Origin: an uncultured Gammaproteobacteria bacterium
GTDB lineage: Bacteria > Patescibacteriota > Patescibacteriia > UBA9934
Length of the DNA: 64,000 nucleotides
NCBI GenBank assembly: GCA_964344145.1
Contig: CAYFME010000001.1
Span: forward strand, 16,896 to 80,895
Direction: 5' to 3'
The position numbers and the translations under genes were made by a program. Under the pieces are notes generated by a model. It made no database searches, was not told where the DNA came from, and saw only the letters and a list, made by a program, of their open reading frames with translations. This document shows positions 7,893-60,419 of the stretch, in pieces; position 1 is the first letter of the stretch; every line of letters starts with the position of its first letter.

Positions 7893-8575
7893 TTGCCGGC
7901 ATTATTCAAGCTCGCATGGGGTCGACTCGTCTTGCCGGCAAGATGAACATGGAGATGCAGGGCGTTGCTCTTCTGACGTGGGTGCTGCGGCGTGTGAAGC
8001 GTGCAACACGTCTGGACGATGTTGTCTTGGCACTGCCAGATACAGCTGAAAATGATGTGCTGCACGCCATTGGTGATGAGGAAGGGGTGCGCGTTGTGCG
8101 TGGTGACGAGCAGGATGTGCTCGGTCGTTTTTTGAAGGCGGCATCGGTCGTGGGTGCGCAAACCATCGTGCGTATCTGTGCGGATAATCCATTGATCGCT
8201 CCCGAGGAGATTGATCGGCTCGTTCTTTTTTTTCAGAAGCATCCGTGTGACTACGCCTACAATCATATTCCGACAGATGATTACCCGGGACCGGACGGAC
8301 TTGGCGCGGAAATAGTGACCCGCGCCGCCCTCGATGCGAGTGCCGCGAGCACGGATTCCGATGATCATGAACATGTCACGCGCTATGTGAAGAGGCATCC
8401 GGAAACGTTCCGCCTGTTGGCAGCTCCTGCGCCGGCCGCCCTTCAGGGAATTCGTCATATGAAGTTTGATGTGGATACGCAGGCGGATTTCGATGATCTC
8501 ACCGCATTCACCTCTGGACTCACTCCACAAGCGACGCTTGAAGATATTATTGCGCAGGTACACGCAAACGCATGA
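7889..8575 (+). CDS. CTP_transf_3-family cytidylyltransferase (SpsF/PseF-like CMP-sugar synthetase)
   Basis: IIQARMGSTRLAGK glycine-rich NTP-binding motif. It is ATGA-coupled to the upstream NeuB-like gene, a classic SpsE/SpsF-type pairing. Confidence 0.7.
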   Translation: MIAGIIQARMGSTRLAGKMNMEMQGVALLTWVLRRVKRATRLDDVVLALPDTAENDVLHAIGDEEGVRVVRGDEQDVLGRFLKAASVVGAQTIVRICADNPLIAPEEIDRLVLFFQKHPCDYAYNHIPTDDYPGPDGLGAEIVTRAALDASAASTDSDDHEHVTRYVKRHPETFRLLAAPAPAALQGIRHMKFDVDTQADFDDLTAFTSGLTPQATLEDIIAQVHANA

Positions 8576-10287
8576 GCACTATCCGATTTTTTCTTAACCT
8601 CCTCGAGCCATTTCGCCCCCTTGCGATTGTACTTTTCGTTGCCATCCTGTGCTCGGCATTGTTTGAGAGTATTGGGATCGCTATGCTGGTTCCGCTGTTT
8701 GAGACGATTCTAAACGAAGGTGGGGAATCGCAACTGTCCAATGCCCTTGCGCCCGTGCTGCGATTGTTCGGTGCCCAGGAGAATGTTCCCGTTATTGCCG
8801 TGATCGTCCTGGTGATGTTTCTTGCAAAGAACGGGTTTCTTATTGCGACCGAATGGCTAAAGAGCAAGTTCATCTACCAGTTCCGCGCTTATTGGATGGA
8901 GCGCATTCACGCTTACTATATGCGCATGCCATATGGGGAATTGGTGCAGAAAAAACAAGGAACACTTATCGATACGTTGATCACGGAAACAAATAAAGGG
9001 GCGAGCGGTTTAGTGAACTTGGTGCAGTTCGTGACCGGTGTGGTGATGGTGACGGTTTTTTACACATTGCTTTTACTTGCGCATCTGGAGATGACTCTGA
9101 TTATGACCGCTGTCGCGCTCGCGTTGTATTTTGGCGTCGTGCGCACGATGAAGCGGTACTCAAAGGCTGTGGGCAAACAAGAGATCTTTTTTCAGCAGTC
9201 GCTCCATGAAGAGGCGGCAGAGAATATTCGTGCCACACGCCAAATTCGTACATTTGATCTGGAGGCCAGTGTGATCAGACGGTTTAACGAAACATTGCAT
9301 GCGCTGACGAAAATGCTCATCCGCTGGGATGTTGTGCGCGCTATTCCCAAGCCCACCGCCGAAGCCATGATTGTTGTGCTCTTTGTTGGCGTTGTGATGT
9401 GGTTGCAGCAGTATGATCCGGCACTCATGCGCACGCTGGTGCCGACCCTTGGAGTGATTGTTATTGTGGCGCAGCGCCTCTTCAATCATTTAACACAGCT
9501 GATTGTCCATCGCATGGTGGTGATTAGCTTCATGCCAGTTTTCGATTTGTTGCAGCGCGAGTTACGCGGGTTTCATTCCCTTCCCCCAGATACGCAAAAC
9601 GCACAAGCATGCACGCGTCTTTCCGACGACATTGCCTTTGCGGGGATGTGTTTTCAGTATCCGGGCAAGGAGCCACTCTTTGACAACGTGAGCTTCCAGA
9701 TTCCCCACGGGAAAACGACCGCGCTGATTGGAGCATCCGGTTCAGGAAAATCAACTATTGCCGACCTGCTCTTGGGGCTTTATGCGCCAACGAGTGGTGC
9801 GATCCTTGTCAACGGAATTGATCTGGAAACGATTGCCCCCACAACATGGCGACGGATGATCGGATTTGTGAGTCAGGATAATTTTCTCTTTCACACGAGC
9901 ATTGGCGAAAACATTCGCATCGGAACGCCCGAGGCGACGGACGAGGACATCCAGCGCGTGGCACGGCTCGCCAATGCCCATGATTTTATCACCCAGTTTC
10001 CCGAAGGATACGACACGATTGTTGGCGATGAAGGCGTGATGCTCTCGGGAGGACAGCGGCAGCGCATTGCGATCGCGCGTGCGTTGCTTCATAACCCTGA
10101 CATCCTTATTTTTGATGAGGCGACGAGCGCGTTGGACTTGGAGACCGAGCGCGCCATTCAACAAGAGATCGGTGCGTTGGCAAAAGGCAAGACGGTGATC
10201 ATCATTACGCATCGTCAAGAGGTACTTGCACACGTGGACCGCATCATCCGCATTGTTGACGGCGCCGTGCACATAGAAGATGTATGA
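8572..10287 (+). CDS. ABC exporter, fused permease + ATPase (MsbA/lipid-flippase-like)
   Basis: Six predicted TM helices N-terminally. Walker A GASGSGKST, signature LSGGQRQRIAIARAL, Walker B ILIFDEATSALD. Confidence 0.85.
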   Translation: MSTIRFFLNLLEPFRPLAIVLFVAILCSALFESIGIAMLVPLFETILNEGGESQLSNALAPVLRLFGAQENVPVIAVIVLVMFLAKNGFLIATEWLKSKFIYQFRAYWMERIHAYYMRMPYGELVQKKQGTLIDTLITETNKGASGLVNLVQFVTGVVMVTVFYTLLLLAHLEMTLIMTAVALALYFGVVRTMKRYSKAVGKQEIFFQQSLHEEAAENIRATRQIRTFDLEASVIRRFNETLHALTKMLIRWDVVRAIPKPTAEAMIVVLFVGVVMWLQQYDPALMRTLVPTLGVIVIVAQRLFNHLTQLIVHRMVVISFMPVFDLLQRELRGFHSLPPDTQNAQACTRLSDDIAFAGMCFQYPGKEPLFDNVSFQIPHGKTTALIGASGSGKSTIADLLLGLYAPTSGAILVNGIDLETIAPTTWRRMIGFVSQDNFLFHTSIGENIRIGTPEATDEDIQRVARLANAHDFITQFPEGYDTIVGDEGVMLSGGQRQRIAIARALLHNPDILIFDEATSALDLETERAIQQEIGALAKGKTVIIITHRQEVLAHVDRIIRIVDGAVHIEDV

Positions 10288-13629: not shown

Positions 13630-13665
13630 AAACAGAAGACCCCGCACCGGACAGGTGACGGGGTC
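13621..13665 (-). terminator. candidate minus-strand rho-independent terminator
   Basis: 11-bp GC-rich stem with one bulge: GACCCCGCACC-ggaca-GGTGACGGGGTC (13638-13665). On the minus strand it is followed by TTCTGTTTCTATTCCTT. It sits just downstream of the minus-strand stop at 13770. Confidence 0.4.
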
Positions 13666-13769
13666 ACTCTGTCGATGCGGGGTAGTTCACCCAGCGCCCT
13701 GCGTGGTGCGGGGGCTGCACCCCGGAGGCGGGCACGAGATGCGATTTCTGTGGGATGCGGTTGAGGTTG

Positions 13770-14006
13770 TCACGCGCTGGTGGACGTGTTCTGGCTTCGC
13801 ATCAGGTTCTGCCTCGCTCGGCGCATGATCACGACCAGCGCGGGCATGACGATGCACAAGATGGCGAAGATGGCGACGGAGGTCTTGGGGTGCGGTGAGC
13901 CGGGGATCGCAGCCGCCGACAGGAGGAGGATGAGAATAGCACCAAACCAGCTCACGCCCTCTCCGACCTTGGCCCAGAAGATCTCACGCTTGAAATAGTC
14001 CCCCAT
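13770..14006 (-). CDS. small 2-TM membrane protein (78 aa), high-GC islet
   Basis: Internal ATG at 14006-14004 is preceded by AGGAGG and overlaps the upstream stop (TGATG). Translation MGDYFKREIFWAKVGEGVSWFGAILILLL...AIFAILCIVMPALVVIM has two hydrophobic helices. The upstream extension of the listed 156-aa ORF has no RBS and is probably not translated. Confidence 0.5.
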   Translation of the reverse strand: MGDYFKREIFWAKVGEGVSWFGAILILLLSAAAIPGSPHPKTSVAIFAILCIVMPALVVIMRRARQNLMRSQNTSTSA

Positions 14007-14344
14007 CACTTTACCTCCTGCTGGATTTTCGACTCCGTCTTGTGCAGGTGGGCGAAGATCTTGTAGAAGAGCCAGCACATGAGCGCCATGGGGATGCCCA
14101 GCAGCGTCGCGCCGAACGCCTCGAGGACGTTGCCGGCTAGAAGGGGCGACACCGCGAAGCAGCACATCGCGCTGAAGTAGATCGTCTTGTTGAAGACCAT
14201 CAGGGTCATGACGTTCCCGGACTGCTCCGGGTAGGTGCACTGCAGGTAGTAGCGCACCGTGTTCCAGTTGAGCAGGTTGTAGACCACCCCGATGAACAGG
14301 GCGACCGCTCCGATGTAGAGCGTGATGGGAAGTGGCAGATCCAT
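14006..14344 (-). CDS. small 3-TM membrane protein (112 aa), high-GC islet
   Basis: GGAGAAAG RBS precedes the ATG at 14344. Three hydrophobic helices (ITLYIGAVALFIGVVY, IYFSAMCCFAVSPLLAG, LLGIPMALMCWLFYKIF). Translationally coupled to the downstream small membrane gene. Confidence 0.55.
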   Translation of the reverse strand: MDLPLPITLYIGAVALFIGVVYNLLNWNTVRYYLQCTYPEQSGNVMTLMVFNKTIYFSAMCCFAVSPLLAGNVLEAFGATLLGIPMALMCWLFYKIFAHLHKTESKIQQEVK

Positions 14345-14463
14345 GGCTTTCTCCAGTCGACTGGGTGAAGTTGCCGACGTGTCAAACTAGCATACAATGG
14401 CTCTGCCGTCAACCAGCTGTTGACGTGAGGCCATTTTTCTGTTAACCATCCTCTCTCAATTAC

Positions 14464-15030
14464 ATGATTATGCTATCATTTAGCAAAAGGGATATGAGTA
14501 ACGTTTGTAACGATAAATTTAAGAATCTTGTCCTCTACGTCCTATCTCACGAAGATTATAGGGAGGGAGGTATTAAGAAGTTGAATAAACTCCTGTACTT
14601 TATTGATTTCTATTTTTACAGAGACCACGAGGAGCTCATCTCGAACGTAGACTACGCAAAGGCAGACATGGGGCCTGTGGTTGACGGGTATAAGACTATT
14701 TTCAGTGCATTAGCCGAAGATGGCGTGATTGAGCAGGTGTCGAACGTGGGCTTTGTGGCGTATAAGGCGAACCAAGCACCAGATTTGAGTGATTTTTCTT
14801 CAGATGAGATCGCCCACATCGGACGAGTACTCGATCAGTATGGGAAACTTTCTGGAAGTGACTTGGAGTTAATCTCTCATCAGCAGCAACCGTGGGTGCT
14901 TACTGAAAGCATGGGAGATAAGATTGATCCTGATTTAGCACTCTTAATTGCAGATAGTGATAATGAAGATGTGGAAGTTCAAAATCAGGATTTGAAGAAC
15001 GAACTGATTGATCTTGCAAATTCTGTGTAG
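14464..15030 (+). CDS. Panacea-domain (DUF4065, SocA-like) putative antitoxin
   Basis: KKLNKLLYFIDFYFYRDHEELISNVDYAKADMGPVVDGY matches the DUF4065/Panacea core (KLxKLLYF...GPV..). The gene is AT-rich relative to its flanks. Confidence 0.6.
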   Translation: MIMLSFSKRDMSNVCNDKFKNLVLYVLSHEDYREGGIKKLNKLLYFIDFYFYRDHEELISNVDYAKADMGPVVDGYKTIFSALAEDGVIEQVSNVGFVAYKANQAPDLSDFSSDEIAHIGRVLDQYGKLSGSDLELISHQQQPWVLTESMGDKIDPDLALLIADSDNEDVEVQNQDLKNELIDLANSV

Positions 15031-15033
15031 CCT

Positions 15034-15363
15034 ATGGCTAAAATTACGGTTGAAGTCCTGGAGTCGCTACAAAAGGAGGTAGATAAAGGTGGTCCGAAAA
15101 TCAAGAAATTATTCGAAAAACAAAAACGATTCATGGAAATGAATCCCAACTATCCATCACTGGGACGAACCAAGCTGCAGGGCGTCTTTGACAAATATGG
15201 TGATCCACTTTGGGAAATTCGTTTGAACAAAAAGGACAGAATCGTATTTGTGGAAAGAAACAGCGGCGAAAGAGTCATCTGGTTGAAGATTGTTGACCAC
15301 GATTCACTCGTCAGAAAGAACACGATTCATGCAAAAGGAAACTATAAAGACACCCCTTGCTGA
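15034..15363 (+). CDS. small protein with RelE/ParE-like toxin C-terminus (putative cognate toxin)
   Basis: LWEIRLNKKDRIVFVERNSGERVIWLKIVDH resembles the RelE/ParE superfamily motif LYELR..RiiY...v.vL.i.hR. It starts 4 nt after the Panacea gene stop. Confidence 0.45.
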   Translation: MAKITVEVLESLQKEVDKGGPKIKKLFEKQKRFMEMNPNYPSLGRTKLQGVFDKYGDPLWEIRLNKKDRIVFVERNSGERVIWLKIVDHDSLVRKNTIHAKGNYKDTPC

Positions 15364-31295: not shown

Positions 31296-32233
31296 AAATA
31301 CTTGTTGTTGGGGGTTCCGGGTTTATCGGAAGCCATGTCGCAGATCAACTTTCTGACGCAGGACACGACGTTGCGATTTTCGCACCGGATCGTTCACCTT
31401 ATGTACGAGACGACCAACGGATGATTGTTGGTGATATTACCAATGCCGACGATGTCGATCGCGCGGTCGCAGGACATGATATTGTTTATAATTTTGCAAG
31501 TGTGGCCGCCATCAAAGAGGCAAGCGAAAATCCAATCGCGGTCACGCGCGTGAATGTCCTTGGGACCGTGCATCTGCTGGAGGCCTGCAGAACGCACAAC
31601 GTGAGGAGATTTATTCTGGCAAGTTCGGTCTATGTGTATAGTCACACGGGGTCGATTTATAAAGCGAGTAAGCAGGCGGCCGAACGGTTTGTGGAGGCGT
31701 ATCTGGAGCGGTTTGATGCGCCGGCGCACACGATTGCGCGCGTGGGCACCGTGTATGGTCCCCGTGCCCAAGAGTGGAACGGCTTTCGTCAGCTCATCAC
31801 CGAGGCGGTGACAAAACAATCGGTCGTGTACAACGGATCGGGCGATGAGGTGCGTGCCTTTGTGCACGTGCACGATGTTGCCGCAAGTTTTGTCGATCTG
31901 CTCGCCCCTGAATATGAAAATGCGCACGTGATTATTGCCGGACAAGAGCAGGTCCGCGCGCGCGATTTTGTTGATATGCTTGCGGAGATGTTCGGCGGCG
32001 CCCTTGATGTAACCTTTGCGCATGAGGGAAGCGCGCGCCCAGATCATTACACCATGACGCCGTTTAGTTACCGTCCGAAAATGGCAAAGAAGATGACGCG
32101 CAGCACCTACATTGATCTTGGGCAGGGGATCCTTGAATACGTACATGAGCTGCAGTTAGAAAAGAACGGCGTTGATCACACCGGGATTCCAACGTTGCAG
32201 ATCGAGCATAACGGCGTTGATCACACCGTATGA
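31292..32233 (+). CDS. NAD-dependent nucleotide-sugar epimerase/dehydratase
   Basis: MKILVVGGSGFIGSHV Rossmann motif, YKASK (YxxxK). The C-terminal tail is created by an 18-bp tandem-type repeat. Confidence 0.75.
   Translation: MKILVVGGSGFIGSHVADQLSDAGHDVAIFAPDRSPYVRDDQRMIVGDITNADDVDRAVAGHDIVYNFASVAAIKEASENPIAVTRVNVLGTVHLLEACRTHNVRRFILASSVYVYSHTGSIYKASKQAAERFVEAYLERFDAPAHTIARVGTVYGPRAQEWNGFRQLITEAVTKQSVVYNGSGDEVRAFVHVHDVAASFVDLLAPEYENAHVIIAGQEQVRARDFVDMLAEMFGGALDVTFAHEGSARPDHYTMTPFSYRPKMAKKMTRSTYIDLGQGILEYVHELQLEKNGVDHTGIPTLQIEHNGVDHTV
32165..32227 (+). repeat. perfect 18-bp direct repeat AACGGCGTTGATCACACC x2, 45 bp apart, at the 3' end of the epimerase gene
   Basis: Copies at 32165-32182 and 32210-32227. 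Encodes the duplicated NGVDHT in the tail ...NGVDHTGIPTLQIEHNGVDHTV*. Confidence 0.8.
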
Positions 32234-33025: not shown

Positions 33026-33054
33026 TTGACAAATCTAGGAGCTTACTCTATATT
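33026..33054 (+). promoter_or_regulatory. near-consensus sigma70 promoter
   Basis: TTGACA (33026-33031), 17-nt spacer, TATATT (33049-33054). It lies immediately after the long glycan operon ends and upstream of the high-GC orphan gene, with a ~150-nt leader. Confidence 0.5.
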
Positions 33055-33206
33055 GACTCCTTGTTCTTTGTGATTTTGGTCTTCTTTTTCGCTACCAAAC
33101 AACCGTAGTAGAGAGAAAGAAGGTCGGAATCCTCCGGTCCCCGTGGTACGCGTTACGCGAACAGTTTGGTTGGTACGACGTACGCCGCATCTTAAGGAGG
33201 TGCCTC

Positions 33207-33743
33207 TTGGCACGCACAGATACGCACAACAGCCCCGTCTCGTGGCTTCGTCGGCTCTCAGGAACTCTCGAGAAGATCATCGAGGCGGTCGAAGAGCAGG
33301 GTGGTACGTTCGACCATCTCAAGTCGTTTGTCGCCGATGCTCGCAACTGCGTCAACCTGGGCAAGCTGGTGATGGGAAGGCTCGAGATCGTCGAGTCGGA
33401 ACTTCCCACCCAGATCACCCTCGGCGATCGCACCTACGAGATCCTCGGCTTCCTCAAGCCTGGCGAGACCTCGGTCAAGGGTGACGTCATGGTCCAGCGC
33501 GCCAAGGAGATGAACGCCCACCTCGGCAAGGAAGACGGCCAGTGGTTCCTGGACCACCAGGACGACATCCCTGAGAGTCTGCGCGGCAAGGTCGCCTTCG
33601 TCTTCACCGACTGGCGTGACCCCGGCGCCTCGCGCAGCGTCTGCTACGTCTACTGGCACGGCGCTTCCCGTCGCTGGATCAGGCACTGGCGCGGCCTCCG
33701 CGACCAGTGGGGTGTCAGCGACCGTCTTGTGCGTCGCAAGTAG
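33207..33743 (+). CDS. hypothetical protein, TTG start, high-GC foreign-looking orphan
   Basis: AAGGAGG RBS 6 nt upstream of TTG. The 178-aa ORF is markedly more GC-rich than its flanks. No recognisable domain. Confidence 0.5.
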   Translation: MARTDTHNSPVSWLRRLSGTLEKIIEAVEEQGGTFDHLKSFVADARNCVNLGKLVMGRLEIVESELPTQITLGDRTYEILGFLKPGETSVKGDVMVQRAKEMNAHLGKEDGQWFLDHQDDIPESLRGKVAFVFTDWRDPGASRSVCYVYWHGASRRWIRHWRGLRDQWGVSDRLVRRK

Positions 33744-33802
33744 GCTCTTGGGTACTGGGGCTCTTGGCACCTGTCTTGGCCCTCGCTCCCTTGGTTCCTC
33801 CG

Positions 33803-33830
33803 CGACCCCCGTCCACATGGACGGGGGTCG
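33803..33830 (+). other. perfect 12-bp GC-rich inverted repeat (hairpin) CGACCCCCGTCC-acat-GGACGGGGGTCG
   Basis: Read directly. Located 60 nt after the high-GC orphan gene, with no following T-tract. Possible terminator or recombination/structural site. Confidence 0.4.
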
Positions 33831-33947
33831 AGTGCTTTGCAAGCGCCATTTCTCACAGTCAACGAACATATGGTGAAGGCCCTCGGCTGGAATGTTAAGA
33901 GCAAGATAGGAGTTGTCACTGGACTGTATGTGATAAGATAGCCCTGT

Positions 33948-34535
33948 ATGAAGCGCCGGCTGAAATCAAAAGGCGAACAAAGCGTCTACGTTTTCATCGA
34001 CGCATCTAACCTGTGGGAGGCGCAGAAGGCCAAGGGGAAGATGTTTGATTTTGAAAAGCTGGTCGCTTATCTGAAAGACGAGTTTTCAACGCCAGATGTT
34101 GAGGTGTTTTATTACACCGCCTATCCCGCAGACGGAACACGCTCATACAGCCTGGATCCAAAGCACAAGTTTTTCGCATTTCTAAAAAAAGGCCTTAGAT
34201 TCCATGTACGTAAGAAGCCGCTGAAGCGCATCACGATCGACAGCGACGAAGGTCAATCAGTACAAGAGAAAGGTAATATGGATGTGGAGATGACGATTGA
34301 TGCCCTCCACCACCGAGATAAGTATGACGTTGCCGTCTTTTTCACGGGTGACTCGGATTTCCTCGCTTTGGTGAACTATCTAAAAAACAACGGAAAGAAG
34401 GTATACATTTTCTCATCTAAGAACAATGTCTCACATGAGCTGAAAACAGGTGGTCATGGATACCGAGACATTCTCAAAATCGACAAGGACATCTGGGGGC
34501 GTGATCTGCGCCACAGAGGACAAAAGAAACGATAA
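33948..34535 (+). CDS. NYN-domain (LabA-like) protein, putative RNase, stand-alone
   Basis: VYVFIDASNLW...DVAVFFTGDSDFLALVNYLK are the NYN/PIN-like acidic motifs. AT-rich gene between GC-rich flanks. Confidence 0.65.
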   Translation: MKRRLKSKGEQSVYVFIDASNLWEAQKAKGKMFDFEKLVAYLKDEFSTPDVEVFYYTAYPADGTRSYSLDPKHKFFAFLKKGLRFHVRKKPLKRITIDSDEGQSVQEKGNMDVEMTIDALHHRDKYDVAVFFTGDSDFLALVNYLKNNGKKVYIFSSKNNVSHELKTGGHGYRDILKIDKDIWGRDLRHRGQKKR

Positions 34536-34705
34536 AGGAAAGCACCCTCCGCAAGGAGGGTGCTTCTTGGATGTAATACCCTAACAGTCTATGGCTAGAC
34601 TGAAAGACACTAAAATCATAGCCTGTGGAGTCGATTCTGTCAATAGTGGTCCCGTCGCGTCAAGTTGACGCGAAAAGGCCAAATGAGTACCCTGAGGCTA
34701 GAAAA

Positions 34706-46173: not shown

Positions 46174-46230
46174 CCCAAATTTGACTAATTTTTTCTCAAG
46201 CAACATAATGGAAACAAGGTAAAATAACGT

Positions 46231-46452
46231 ATGAGCAAAATAGATTTCAAAGTAGCCGTATGGAAAGAGGGAGACTACTACGTCTCGCGTTGTTTGGATG
46301 TTGAGGTGTCAAGCTTTGGGAAAACAAAAAAAGAAGCCCTTGCGATGCTTCAAGAAGCACTGGAACTCTATTTTGAAGACGCACCATTTCCAAACAAAAA
46401 GGATTTGATAAAAAGACCAGTTCTCGCTTCGGTCACGTTGCAACATGCCTAA
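46231..46452 (+). CDS. hicB: HicB-family antitoxin
   Basis: 73 aa. VAVWKEGDYYVSRCLDVEVSSFGKTKKEALAMLQEALELYFE matches the HicB/UPF0150 pattern. Overlaps the downstream HicA-like gene. Confidence 0.6.
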   Translation: MSKIDFKVAVWKEGDYYVSRCLDVEVSSFGKTKKEALAMLQEALELYFEDAPFPNKKDLIKRPVLASVTLQHA

Positions 46453-46669
46453 ACAATACTCCGTGAGACTTGTCATCAAAGTCCTTCTCAGTAAGGGCTT
46501 CTTTTTTGTTTCCCAAAAAGGATCTCATGCCAAATATCGGAAAATAGGGGACCCAACGAGGGTCGTCATTGTTCCAAAGCATGAAAAAGATTTGCGCTAC
46601 GGAACTTTTAAGTCAATTTTGGAGCAGGCGAATTTAAAAGAAAGCGATTTTCGGGGCAAGAAAAAATAA
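46445..46669 (+). CDS. hicA: HicA-family toxin (YcfA-like mRNA interferase)
   Basis: 74 aa. KVLLSKGFFFVSQKGSHAKYRK...VVIVPKHEKDLRYGTFKSILEQANL matches HicA (G-f.....GSH......t.P.H...l..GtL..Il). Confidence 0.65.
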   Translation: MPKQYSVRLVIKVLLSKGFFFVSQKGSHAKYRKIGDPTRVVIVPKHEKDLRYGTFKSILEQANLKESDFRGKKK

Positions 46670-58480: not shown

Positions 58481-60391
<1,911 letters not shown>

Positions 60392-60419
60392 GTGAATTGA
60401 ATTCTGATATAATTGTCTC

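Follow-up and report, generated by a model that had tools for sequence, protein, structure and literature searches.

Layout of the cassette

The window, the 64-kb stretch of DNA analysed here, carries a compact cassette at 33026-33833, next to a gene for an NYN-domain protein and flanked by genes of a glycan operon. The cassette is composed of a promoter, a long leader, a TTG-initiated 178-aa ORF of raised GC content, and a hairpin behind the stop codon. An earlier reading of the letters by themselves (the sequence-only reading) had pointed out each of these parts, and all of them are present. It also described a self-contained promoter-gene-hairpin cassette that has nothing to do with glycan synthesis, which is borne out. 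The extent to 33930 that it gave is too long, as homology with relatives already stops near 33833. The features are as follows.

33026..33054, plus strand: sigma-70-type promoter (TTGACA 33026-33031, spacer of 17 nt, TATATT 33049-33054; 11/12 match)
33061..33206, plus strand: structured 5' leader, about 146 nt from a predicted start site
33072-33131: leader P1 hairpin, a long stem within the leader
33194-33200: Shine-Dalgarno sequence (SD) AAGGAGG, before the TTG start at 33207
33200-33213: small leader hairpin that encloses the TTG start codon
33207-33743, plus strand: ORF of 178 aa, TTG start, TAG stop at 33741-33743
33207..33401, plus strand: first part of the CDS, N-terminal helical module (residues 1-65)
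33402..33611, plus strand: second part of the CDS, conserved C-type-lectin-like scaffold as modelled (residues 66-135)
33612..33741, plus strand: third part of the CDS, putative variable repeat (VR; residues 136-178), ending on the T of the TAG stop
33744..33802, plus strand: CTTGG-repeat 3' tract (CTTGG at 33747, 33763, 33775, and 33790; ACTGG at 33754)
33803..33830, plus strand: GC-rich hairpin (perfect 12-bp stem, 4-nt loop ACAU, dG -27.7)
33948-34535, plus strand: NYN-domain gene, GC about 0.45 (Pfam NYN, E = 7e-22), a co-inserted neighbour outside the diversity-generating retroelement (DGR) family described below
34540-34565, plus strand: terminator hairpin of the NYN gene (gene and terminator together 33948..34565)
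33258-33869, minus strand: long antisense ORF, open across the cassette

In public assemblies, gene callers picked the antisense ORF instead of the 178-aa ORF.

The promoter is statistically unremarkable as a single site, with five promoter-like sites observed in 3 kb and 2.2 expected. Of 42 homologous loci, 31 have a promoter scoring at least 10/12 in the corresponding place. The leader folds with an MFE of -56.5 kcal/mol (z = -3.8), and none of 200 shuffles is as stable. Within it, base-pairing is predicted between CUCC at 33132-33135 and the GGAG of the SD at 33196-33199, and the pairing probability of the SD is close to 1. The leader is homologous along its full length to those of the closest relatives, L076 and L077, with eight compensatory pairs, and the window TTG start aligns exactly with their ATG. 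The P1 pattern GGnTTTCTTT...AAAGAAnCC recurs across the family. An SD-pairing leader of this kind would control translation of the variable protein. In Rfam, the leader and the 3' UTR have no match at the gathering score; the only hit is to ar7 at chance level (E = 0.76).

A protein family tied to DGRs

The ORF was described as an orphan gene. This does not survive comparison with other genomes: there are 48 close homologues of about 155 aa, all of uncultured Patescibacteria, and the wider family comprises 1255, 639, and 147 representative clusters (at 50% identity) at E <= 1e-3, 1e-10, and 1e-30. ClpC puts the window itself in Patescibacteria. No match to the ORF was found in Pfam, NCBIfam, PHROGs, or PADLOC, and a profile search against PDB sequences returned only noise (E > 0.7). 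The statement that the protein has no recognisable domain thus stands for those four collections, though it overlooked the many homologues. Judged by these comparisons, the family appears to be large, Pfam-less, and restricted to Patescibacteria (CPR). Syntenic homologues of native composition, which the sequence-only reading had set against its own proposal, were found by half: homologues exist, yet they are neither syntenic nor native in composition.

The family is conserved in the manner of a protein: W, F, and L residues are invariant, and the RVLRRK end is fixed. In the AF2 model, the C-terminal domain reaches a pLDDT of 95-98 and the N-terminus consists of three helices of lower pLDDT. 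The C-terminal domain models as a compact C-type-lectin fold. The N-terminal module is 68% identical to P0046 over residues 1-72 and unrelated to the N-terminus of P0001, a near-identical copy of the remainder, and to those of most family members. It appears to be a swappable module, common to the P0046/P0047 type of DGR target. The exact 44-nt scaffold pattern had no matches in JGI metagenomes. IMG/VR gave one match among 2.9 million viral contigs, and a phage origin was rejected on this count.

The gene ends in a VR of ~125 nt in eight related loci, with a template repeat (TR) 0.4-0.5 kb downstream. The differences between TR and VR are nearly confined to adenines of the TR. Mismatches of TR against VR over 110 nt, given as non-A/A, are listed here.

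L020: 0/16
L022: 0/18
L026: 1/17
L076: 1/23
L023, two tandem targets: 1/15 and 2/9
L031: 6/21
L010: 6/18
L013: 14/20

Both TR and VR lie in frame and have codons of the AAC type. Avd and a DGR-type reverse transcriptase (RT) are found in L013, L022, L023, and L076, where the contig extends far enough, and the RT of L013 has the motifs GNLTSQ and YADD. Downstream of the target, the order in relatives is a promoter, a conserved RNA of ~240 nt, the TR, Avd on the opposite strand, and the RT. Besides RT and Avd, no conserved neighbours of the cassette were found across loci.

The window protein matches loci with A-only TR/VR pairs in tblastn at E = 1e-26 to 1e-43. Its VR region aligns with the VRs of all eight loci listed (L010, L013, L020, L022, L023, L026, L031, and L076) column for column, with one 2-codon insertion. 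The cassette at 33026-33833 is therefore very likely the target (variable-protein) gene of a DGR, belonging to a Patescibacteria-restricted family and having its VR at 33612-33741. The sequence-only reading of the cassette as cargo did not foresee this identity. In such a system, cDNA would be made from the TR with its adenines randomised, and this cDNA would overwrite the VR. The outcome would be many ligand-binding variants on a fixed scaffold. The window VR would have been written by a DGR of this kind.

Comparison with P0001 bears on how recently this took place. In a comparison of the proteins only, the two differ at 2 of 72 scaffold residues and at 15 of 41 VR residues, and changes at codon positions 1 and 2 could account for all 15 VR differences. 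That the VR differs in a paralogue otherwise nearly identical implies that rewriting was recent. Independent assemblies fork at 33417, exactly where identity with P0001 starts. At the level of consensus contigs, assemblies from two samples carry the same VR and so give no sign of ongoing diversification.

The window copy has no DGR beside it. The search covered the 64-kb window with ~0.9 kb of upstream and 6.5 kb of downstream flank, and no TR, RT, or Avd was found from ~33.6 kb upstream to 36.8 kb downstream of the gene. For the TR in the window, a generic repeat search, blastn at word size 7, a full-length A-tolerant ungapped scan, and scans with half the VR and with its last 40 nt, run with shuffled controls, all came back empty. 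The best candidates in the window and flanks have 13-16 non-A mismatches per 65 nt, which equals the shuffles. The Avd and RT proteins of L013 had no tblastn match across the window, and no RVT_1 is found in L070, which extends 6.5 kb past the window end.

With no TR, Avd, or RT in ~70 kb, the window copy would be either a remote target, reached in trans, or a recently orphaned one. Whether a DGR elsewhere in the genome would serve it in trans is about evenly balanced. A DGR beside the P0001-like paralogue would be a plausible source. Possible too, though we lean against it, is that the gene is an orphaned relic: the retroelement would have been lost from the genome, the VR frozen, and the protein turned into a fixed lectin-like binder. 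The long stretch empty of DGR genes and the VR shared by two samples agree with such a loss, as do decayed DGR remnants behind the target in L003, L005, and L012. Moreover, ~12 loci of the family, each with 2 kb or more of sequence to either side, are solo, having no TR either, so orphaned copies may be common. On the other hand, the ORF is intact, its target-site hairpin is perfect, and a near-identical paralogue carries a different VR. The GC3 of 0.83 and the CTTGG tract are those of DGR-linked members, and divergent low-GC3 members have lost the repeats. Remote DGR targets are also documented elsewhere (PMC5758913), where those at >100 kb occur only in another lineage and a single target is usual for CPR DGRs. 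The remote targets reported for Treponema denticola, Trichodesmium, and cyanobacteria (PMC4891356, PMC8867640, PMC7517822) resemble the window gene in that the VR gene lies far from the RT and in that scaffold and 3' signals are common with a copy elsewhere; unlike in those systems, targeting in trans is something we infer for the window copy.

The CTTGG tract and the GC-rich hairpin

The CTTGG tract is the sole site on either strand of the 64 kb with four CTTGG in 55 nt. Family-wide, CT[TC]GG was counted 109 times over 2700 nt of 3' UTR versus 42 times over 8100 nt of CDS, with 0 reverse complements. Its period of ~8 nt implies that the tract is non-coding. Read-through coding was considered and rejected on the same period and on frames that differ between loci.

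The hairpin begins 59 nt after the stop and 61 nt from the VR end. It had been called a perfect, GC-only 12-bp repeat; the 12 bp are indeed perfect, but the stem is made of 10 G-C and 2 A-T pairs. It aligns with GC hairpins of other sequence at the same stop distance in L076, L077, and L031. The promoter, the leader hairpin, the CTTGG repeats, and the GC hairpin are conserved parts of the cassette.

The hairpin at 33803-33830 is a candidate DGR target-site hairpin/cruciform, by analogy with the hairpins and IMH described by Guo et al. 2011 (PMC3240598). As in that system, a perfect stem, rich in GC and closed by a 4-nt loop, lies downstream of the VR, the stem sequence varies among relatives while structure and position are kept, and the VR/TR homology has a defined 3' end, here the T of the stop codon. 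The differences from the hairpins of that report are a stem of 12 bp instead of 7-10 bp, a loop of ACAU instead of GRNA, and a distance of 61 nt from the VR end instead of 4-34 bp. The repeat array between VR and hairpin is undescribed there and present in the window. In the papers covered by a literature search, no description of GC-rich DGR targets or of CTTGG was found. The hairpin, and perhaps the CTTGG tract as well, would mark the 3' end of the VR as the homing site.

It is rather unlikely that the hairpin is a plain Rho-independent terminator with no part in DGR targeting. The stem is strong (dG -27.7) and sits at the end of the transcription unit, and for many relatives a U-tract terminator is the hairpin that stands out most downstream. 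However, the sequence after the window stem is GAGTGCTTTGC, which has no T-run, and a terminator scan does not report 33803-33830. Behind the short GC hairpin that aligns with this stem, L076 and L077 have a U-tract terminator as a separate element. The varying stem sequence with its constant structure and position also speaks for the target-site reading, as this is what is reported for DGR target hairpins (PMC3240598).

Composition, insertion, and place among known systems

The ORF has a GC content of 0.631 versus 0.522 for the window, and its GC3 of 0.83 compares with a mean of 0.56 and a maximum of 0.67 in 44 long window ORFs. Composition of this kind is found throughout the family. GC3 of the target is 0.1-0.65 above that of the host in every member, in host genomes of 31-52% GC, and its mean excess over the flanking genes is 0.35. 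Avd and RT, where linked, have the composition of the host. Recent transfer cannot account for high GC3 in all members across such hosts; high GC is a family trait. The claim that alien composition marks transfer is not upheld. The GC3 of the window gene, like its CTTGG tract, is at the level of DGR-linked members.

By synteny, the cassette and the NYN gene are an insertion between two glycan-operon genes that are adjacent or fused elsewhere. In L065, a syntenic relative, 24 nt separate the cytidylyltransferase gene from the adjoining GT2-ADH gene, and the two genes are fused in P0266 and P0267. In L063, the gap between them holds a different GC-rich islet. The NYN gene is missing between the orthologous flanking genes in both L063 and L065. 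In taking the cassette for inserted DNA, the sequence-only reading is supported. No target-site duplication or flanking repeats were found round the insertion beyond 10-11-nt repeats at chance level, and no recombinase lies near it.

The NYN gene matches PADLOC model PDLC01154 (E = 9e-10). It neighbours a family gene in 2 of ~45 loci, the window and L013, and these two NYN proteins are 28% identical. A role as DGR accessory was rejected, as the NYN gene adjoins the target only in these two loci.

The sequence-only reading saw a recently acquired, high-GC mobile or defence cargo paired with the NYN nuclease. The joint insertion relative to syntenic relatives, the PADLOC match, and the NYN gene behind the DGR of L013 are in its favour. 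It is nonetheless very improbable: GC3 is high in members across hosts of 31-52% GC, the GC of the NYN gene is below that of the host, so no donor composition is common to both genes, and neither flanking direct repeats nor a recombinase is present. A defence association through the NYN gene is likewise unsupported, given the neighbour in only 2 of ~45 loci and the lack of a PADLOC match for the ORF, and the single match in 2.9 million viral contigs counts against the cargo reading. A structured non-coding RNA, with an ORF that is open as a by-product of composition, can practically be dismissed as the explanation of the GC-rich islet, since against a GC-rich island in AT-richer genomes and an equally open antisense ORF (33258-33869, minus strand), which gene callers of other assemblies took, stand the protein-like conservation with its invariant residues and fixed RVLRRK end, the confident predicted fold, the in-frame TR and VR with AAC-type codons, the codon-position pattern (GC1, GC2, GC3 = 0.66, 0.43, 0.88), and the lack of an Rfam match.

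The DGR variable-protein gene is of a kind already known, and some of the cis features here are undescribed. The nearest systems are the DGR variable proteins of C-type-lectin fold, such as Mtd of the Bordetella phage, TvpA of Treponema denticola, and those of Thermus and archaea. Closest among them are the CPR DGRs, which form clade 2 in Roux et al. 2021 (PMC8144416) and, in Wu et al. 2018 (PMC5758913), the "CPR set" divided into UVR classes. The likeness includes a VR placed C-terminally in a lectin-like fold, a modular N-terminus, tandem or multiple targets, and a cellular rather than phage location. In the loci of relatives, it extends to an AAC-rich TR with A-only mismatches and to Avd with an RT of DGR-type motif. 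As reported for CPR DGRs, the target has no signal peptide, transmembrane segment, or known domain. Unlike them, the window copy has no DGR within ~70 kb, and the whole CDS of the family is extreme in GC3 relative to the host, whereas Avd and RT are not. The ~60 nt of 8-nt-periodic CTTGG repeats between VR and hairpin, the conserved consensus promoter with a folded, SD-pairing leader, and an Avd gene that sits between TR and RT but on the opposite strand are further differences.

A broader view, which is speculative and on balance doubtful, is that patescibacterial DGR targets are portable, self-sufficient homing cassettes that would be rewritten in trans wherever they have landed. The recoding to G/C-ending codons, the CTTGG array, and the GC hairpin would then form a nucleic-acid recognition module. 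The recoding is near-total over the CDS and would run against host codon usage. The strand-specific, 8-nt-periodic array of ~4-7 CTTGG units could dock a pentameric Avd-RT complex, and the SD-sequestering leader would gate expression of the variable protein. If true, this would account for about half of the family loci being solo in unrelated contexts.

The unannotated "orphan" can now be placed in a large CPR family of hypervariable, lectin-like proteins. CPR bacteria are believed to rely on surface interactions with their hosts. The family also illustrates that an anomalous composition may belong to a class of genes as an intrinsic, conserved trait and need not be evidence of recent transfer. 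The CTTGG array with the hairpin and the GC3 recoding provide concrete elements that bear on the way in which a DGR locates its VR, above all one that is remote. Moreover, surveys for DGRs that start from the RT miss solo targets (Roux et al. 2021, PMC8144416), and genes of CPR bacteria that are diversified by DGRs are therefore probably under-counted.

The gene and its family

The TTG-initiated gene of the window is a diversity-generating retroelement (DGR) variable-protein gene of a CPR-specific family, and it is carried in a solo cassette inserted in a glycan operon. Both its place in this family and a DGR origin for its variable repeat (VR) are well supported and highly probable. The cassette contains the following features.

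33026-33031 and 33049-33054, plus strand: promoter, TTGACA and TATATT with a 17-nt spacer, match 11/12
33194-33200, plus strand: ribosome-binding site AAGGAGG, read from the sequence
33207-33743, plus strand: TTG-initiated ORF, 178 aa
33747, 33763, 33775 and 33790, plus strand: CTTGG units after the stop, a four-copy cluster within 55 nt found nowhere else in the 64 kb
33803-33830: perfect inverted repeat, 12-bp stem, 4-nt loop, dG -27.7, beginning 59 nt past the stop

The sequence-only reading had described this promoter, ribosome-binding site and ORF, and all three are present as described. It had also called the gene an orphan with no recognisable domain. The ORF has no match in Pfam, NCBIfam, PHROGs or PADLOC. 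It is not an orphan: a homology search with the protein returned 48 proteins, most of about 155 aa, and a profile built on 45 members matched 1255 cluster representatives, 639 of them at E <= 1e-10. The named sources of the 48 homologues are all uncultured Patescibacteria genomes (Magasanikbacteria, 'Patescibacteria group'). The window itself is placed in Patescibacteria by its ClpC, which is closest to proteins of Candidatus Uhrbacteria and 'Patescibacteria group'. In an AlphaFold2 model from the family alignment, residues 70-178 adopt a C-type-lectin fold at pLDDT 95-98, and the N-terminus forms three lower-confidence helices; Foldseek gave weaker support for the same fold. DGR VRs usually sit in such a fold (PMC5758913, PMC8144416).

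The family is composed of a conserved core followed by a C-terminal stretch that mixes conserved W, V and L with hypervariable positions and ends, in all members, in a near-invariant RVLRRK. Some profile-matched members carry 2-4 tandem domain copies. Internal duplications occur in P0002, which has two complete domains, and in P0291-P0298, with four domains in the 517-aa P0291; in L014 (2778-3461) the segment DGEEWVSIHKLVERAIEMGANLGEDDG.YLLDN is repeated.

For comparison, 15 genome and 40 metagenome loci were fetched. The 3'-terminal 122 nt of the gene have a second copy downstream, which is 82% identical in L010, where it lies 0.36 kb away, and 70% identical in L013. In the alignments, the downstream copy has an adenine at almost every mismatch, and these adenines are typically part of AAC codons. 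A scan for the template repeat (TR) that forgave mismatches at candidate-template adenines gave the counts below.

Mismatches between TR and VR over 110 nt (non-A / A)
L020: 0 / 16
L022: 0 / 18
L023, two tandem targets sharing one template: 1 / 15 and 2 / 9
L026: 1 / 17
L031: 6 / 21
L010: 6 / 18
L013: 14 / 20

Downstream of the template, L013, L022 and L023 encode a reverse transcriptase (RT), with the motifs GNLTSQ and YADD in L013, and, on the opposite strand, a four-helix protein resembling Avd. TR/VR mismatches almost all at adenines, together with Avd and RT, are the defining DGR signature, with the family gene as the target, its 3' end as the VR and the downstream copy as the TR. The VR/TR homology runs from the W-R codons to exactly the T of the TAG stop, placing the window VR by alignment at 33612-33741.

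Between a TATAAT promoter and the TR lies a conserved RNA-like element of about 240 nt (L010 2660-2904; L013 10530-10767), which contains GGAWAGTAAACGAAACAGTCCACGG...GGGCGGTTGAAATCTGG...AAAATGAAAATACTTGGTGCAA and is also found downstream of the target in L002, L003, L007, L076 and L077. It has no Rfam match at gathering score and is probably a functional DGR RNA scaffold. In these DGRs a short hairpin comes after the TR. L013 also has a GC-rich sequence of about 110 nt (ITPPPATQASPACNAMLALAGRLLALRAGPAPL in translation) at 8391-8500 and 9710-9840, one copy lying just upstream of the target leader in place of the usual promoter and P1 region; this may be a repeat element.

Traces of variation are found in the lineage of the window. 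P0001, which has a near-identical copy of the scaffold of the window protein, matches it at 70 of 72 positions over residues 66-137 and differs at 15 of 41 over residues 138-178. Inferred from the window codons, with P0001 compared as protein, all 15 changes would need substitutions only at codon positions 1 and 2 (window/P0001, for example GAC/TAY, GGC/GAY, AGC/GAY, TGC/TAY). Randomised TR adenines in NAC-type codons yield such first- and second-position changes. The same population was also assembled independently; these contigs match the window at 100% identity, and every one breaks within the gene: left contigs stop at 33543 or 33446, and right contigs begin at 33417, 33491 or 33766. Position 33417 is the exact start of identity with P0001, and these breaks indicate that the same community holds a second scaffold copy with another N-terminus and VR. 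The window VR consensus is identical in two samples. Two exact repeats, each near chance expectation taken singly, were also seen: CCTCCGCGACC within the VR (33695-33705) and again running into the hairpin (33797-33807), and CTCTTGGCAC across the TTG start (33204-33213) and again as a 3' CTTGG unit (33761-33770).

P0046 and P0047 are homologous to the N-terminal 65 residues of the window protein, and the window leader is homologous end to end with those of their loci, L076 and L077, with double changes at 8 pairs. The P0046 gene is accompanied by a TR of its own (1 non-A / 23 A mismatches), by Avd and by RT; the P0047 contig is shorter and stops before any TR could show. With an N-terminus and leader like P0046/P0047 and a remainder like P0001, the window gene is a chimera of modules both derived from DGR targets, in agreement with the modularity noted by Roux et al. 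(PMC8144416).

Conserved parts and insertion of the cassette

The promoter, leader, CTTGG tract and GC hairpin are conserved parts of the cassette. Five promoter-like sites were seen in 3 kb against 2.2 expected, so a single match is not improbable in itself; a site scoring at least 10/12 occupies the equivalent place in 31 of 42 distinct family loci. A long P1 hairpin, whose stem is the conserved GGnTTTCTTT/AAAGAAnCC, is found in the leaders of most loci, and further hairpins beyond it carry compensatory changes. In the predicted fold of the window leader, CUCC (33132-33135) pairs with the Shine-Dalgarno (SD) GGAG (33196-33199), whose bases have a pairing probability of about 1, and the TTG start is masked by a small hairpin. 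The modelled leader suggests translational control of the target gene.

In 30 loci, CT[TC]GG occurs 109 times in 2700 nt of 3' UTR versus 42 times in 8100 nt of coding sequence, with no reverse complements in this count. The tract adjoins the VR, not the TR, and is not coding because its period is about 8 nt and its frame differs. The hairpin, described earlier as GC-only, is perfect and 12 bp long with two A-T pairs in its stem, and no T-run follows. Short GC-rich hairpins with 3-4-nt loops and other stem sequences align with it about 60 nt after the stop in L076, L077 and L031; beyond it, L076 and L077 have a separate U-tract terminator and, after that, the DGR RNA promoter. Guo et al. (PMC3240598) showed that homing depends on a GC-rich hairpin/cruciform downstream of the VR, in which structure mattered and stem sequence did not. 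The window element fits in kind, whereas its loop is ACAU rather than GRNA and it lies 61 nt from the VR end rather than 4-34 bp. Homology with relatives stops near 33833, short of the cassette end at 33930 first proposed.

The cassette is flanked by a long plus-strand glycan-synthesis cluster. In the syntenic locus L065 (GCA_030694215.1), the cytidylyltransferase and GT2-ADH genes are separated by a 24-nt gap, and elsewhere they are fused into one protein (P0266, P0267). The same gap in L063 (GCA_030674435.1, 4404-5000) holds a different 600-nt GC-rich islet (GC 0.61 vs 0.49), which carries a terminator-like hairpin and, on the minus strand, a 141-aa ORF. By this synteny, the segment 33004-34620 (cassette and NYN gene) is read as an insertion at a site that also took other cargo, which suggests an insertion hot spot. 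No flanking direct repeats or recombinase were found around it. The idea of a self-contained cargo thus holds for the insertion and for absence of the cassette from syntenic relatives. Its defence-associated side is not supported: PADLOC gave no match for the ORF, and the NYN gene adjoins the target only in the window and L013 (28% identity), an adjacency treated as coincidence. Apart from its DGR, the cassette lacks neighbours that are conserved between lineages, and viral contigs contain almost no members of the family.

Other small elements lie in the window. A first high-GC islet (13630-14350, GC ~0.6), unrelated to the target family, is bordered by a methyltransferase gene and a low-GC module, with minus-strand small membrane-protein ORFs at 14006-14344 (weak MotA/ExbB match) and 13770-14240 and a hairpin GACCCCG...CGGGGTC at ~13640-13667. 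The two-gene module right after it (14464-15363, GC 0.43) is probably a toxin-antitoxin pair: 14464-15030 encodes an antitoxin-like protein with a SocA/Panacea domain (Pfam E = 2e-17), and 15034-15363 its 109-aa partner. The 3' end of an epimerase gene has a tandem 45-nt direct repeat (32151-32228, 85% identity) that duplicates LQ(L/I)E(K/H)NGVDHT. Small mobile-type genes in the glycan cluster (59682-60395 and ~46200-46600; L067 12815-13191) are a faint Y1-transposase-like ORF before ClpC and a DUF7387/HicA-like pair.

Composition of the target gene

The ORF is far richer in GC than its neighbourhood, as first observed (0.631 vs 0.522 for the window), and its GC3 of 0.83 lies above both the mean (0.56) and the maximum (0.67) of 44 long window ORFs. 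The target is far GC-richer than the genome in every locus (L003 0.63 vs 0.33; L001 0.54 vs 0.31). Target GC3 reaches 0.93-0.97 in L010 and L013; its mean excess over flanking long ORFs is 0.35, and in L003 the excess is 0.65 (0.85 vs 0.20). GC is host-like in Avd (0.39-0.42), in RT (0.44) and in the RNA that precedes the TR (0.45-0.49). CTTGG repeats are also missing from divergent members whose GC3 is low.

In our view the recoding reflects an unexplained constraint at the nucleic-acid level; candidate causes are a need for mRNA or duplex stability in homing, or GC-biased conversion between targets present in several copies. The GC excess, first read as alien composition, cannot be due to recent transfer from a donor of high GC, because it is family-wide and Avd, RT and RNA are host-like. 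Nor can translational optimisation account for it, because G/C-ending codons are rare in these genomes. No description of such recoding was found in the DGR literature searched, whose coverage was limited.

A 203-aa antisense ORF (33258-33869, minus strand) is open because of the GC-rich composition. ENA assemblies call its fragments (L016 1-270 minus; L059 4029-4313 minus) and not the TTG-start gene, so the real protein is absent from the protein collection.

Remote target or orphan

No TR was found in the window by generic repeat search, full-length A-tolerant scan or half-VR scans, whose best candidates (13-16 non-A mismatches per 65 nt) equalled shuffled VRs. Neither RT nor Avd was found in the window or in 6.5 kb past its end. 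Two readings follow for the window copy: a DGR elsewhere targets it remotely, or it was orphaned recently. Remote DGR targets are known from other lineages (PMC5758913), and a DGR adjoining the P0001-like paralogue is plausible. Another dozen or so family loci, each with 2 kb or more of sequence on both sides, are likewise solo, and decayed remnants of the DGR RNA region persist at some solo loci (L003, L005, L012). The contigs of L002, L007 and L009 stop precisely at the expected TR start. The chances that the window VR is currently diversified in trans are evenly balanced.

DGRs and domain-less lectin-like targets in CPR were already known (PMC5758913, PMC8144416). What may be new in this family is a GC3 recoding limited to the target, a CTTGG array between the VR and the hairpin, and a conserved leader predicted to pair with the SD.
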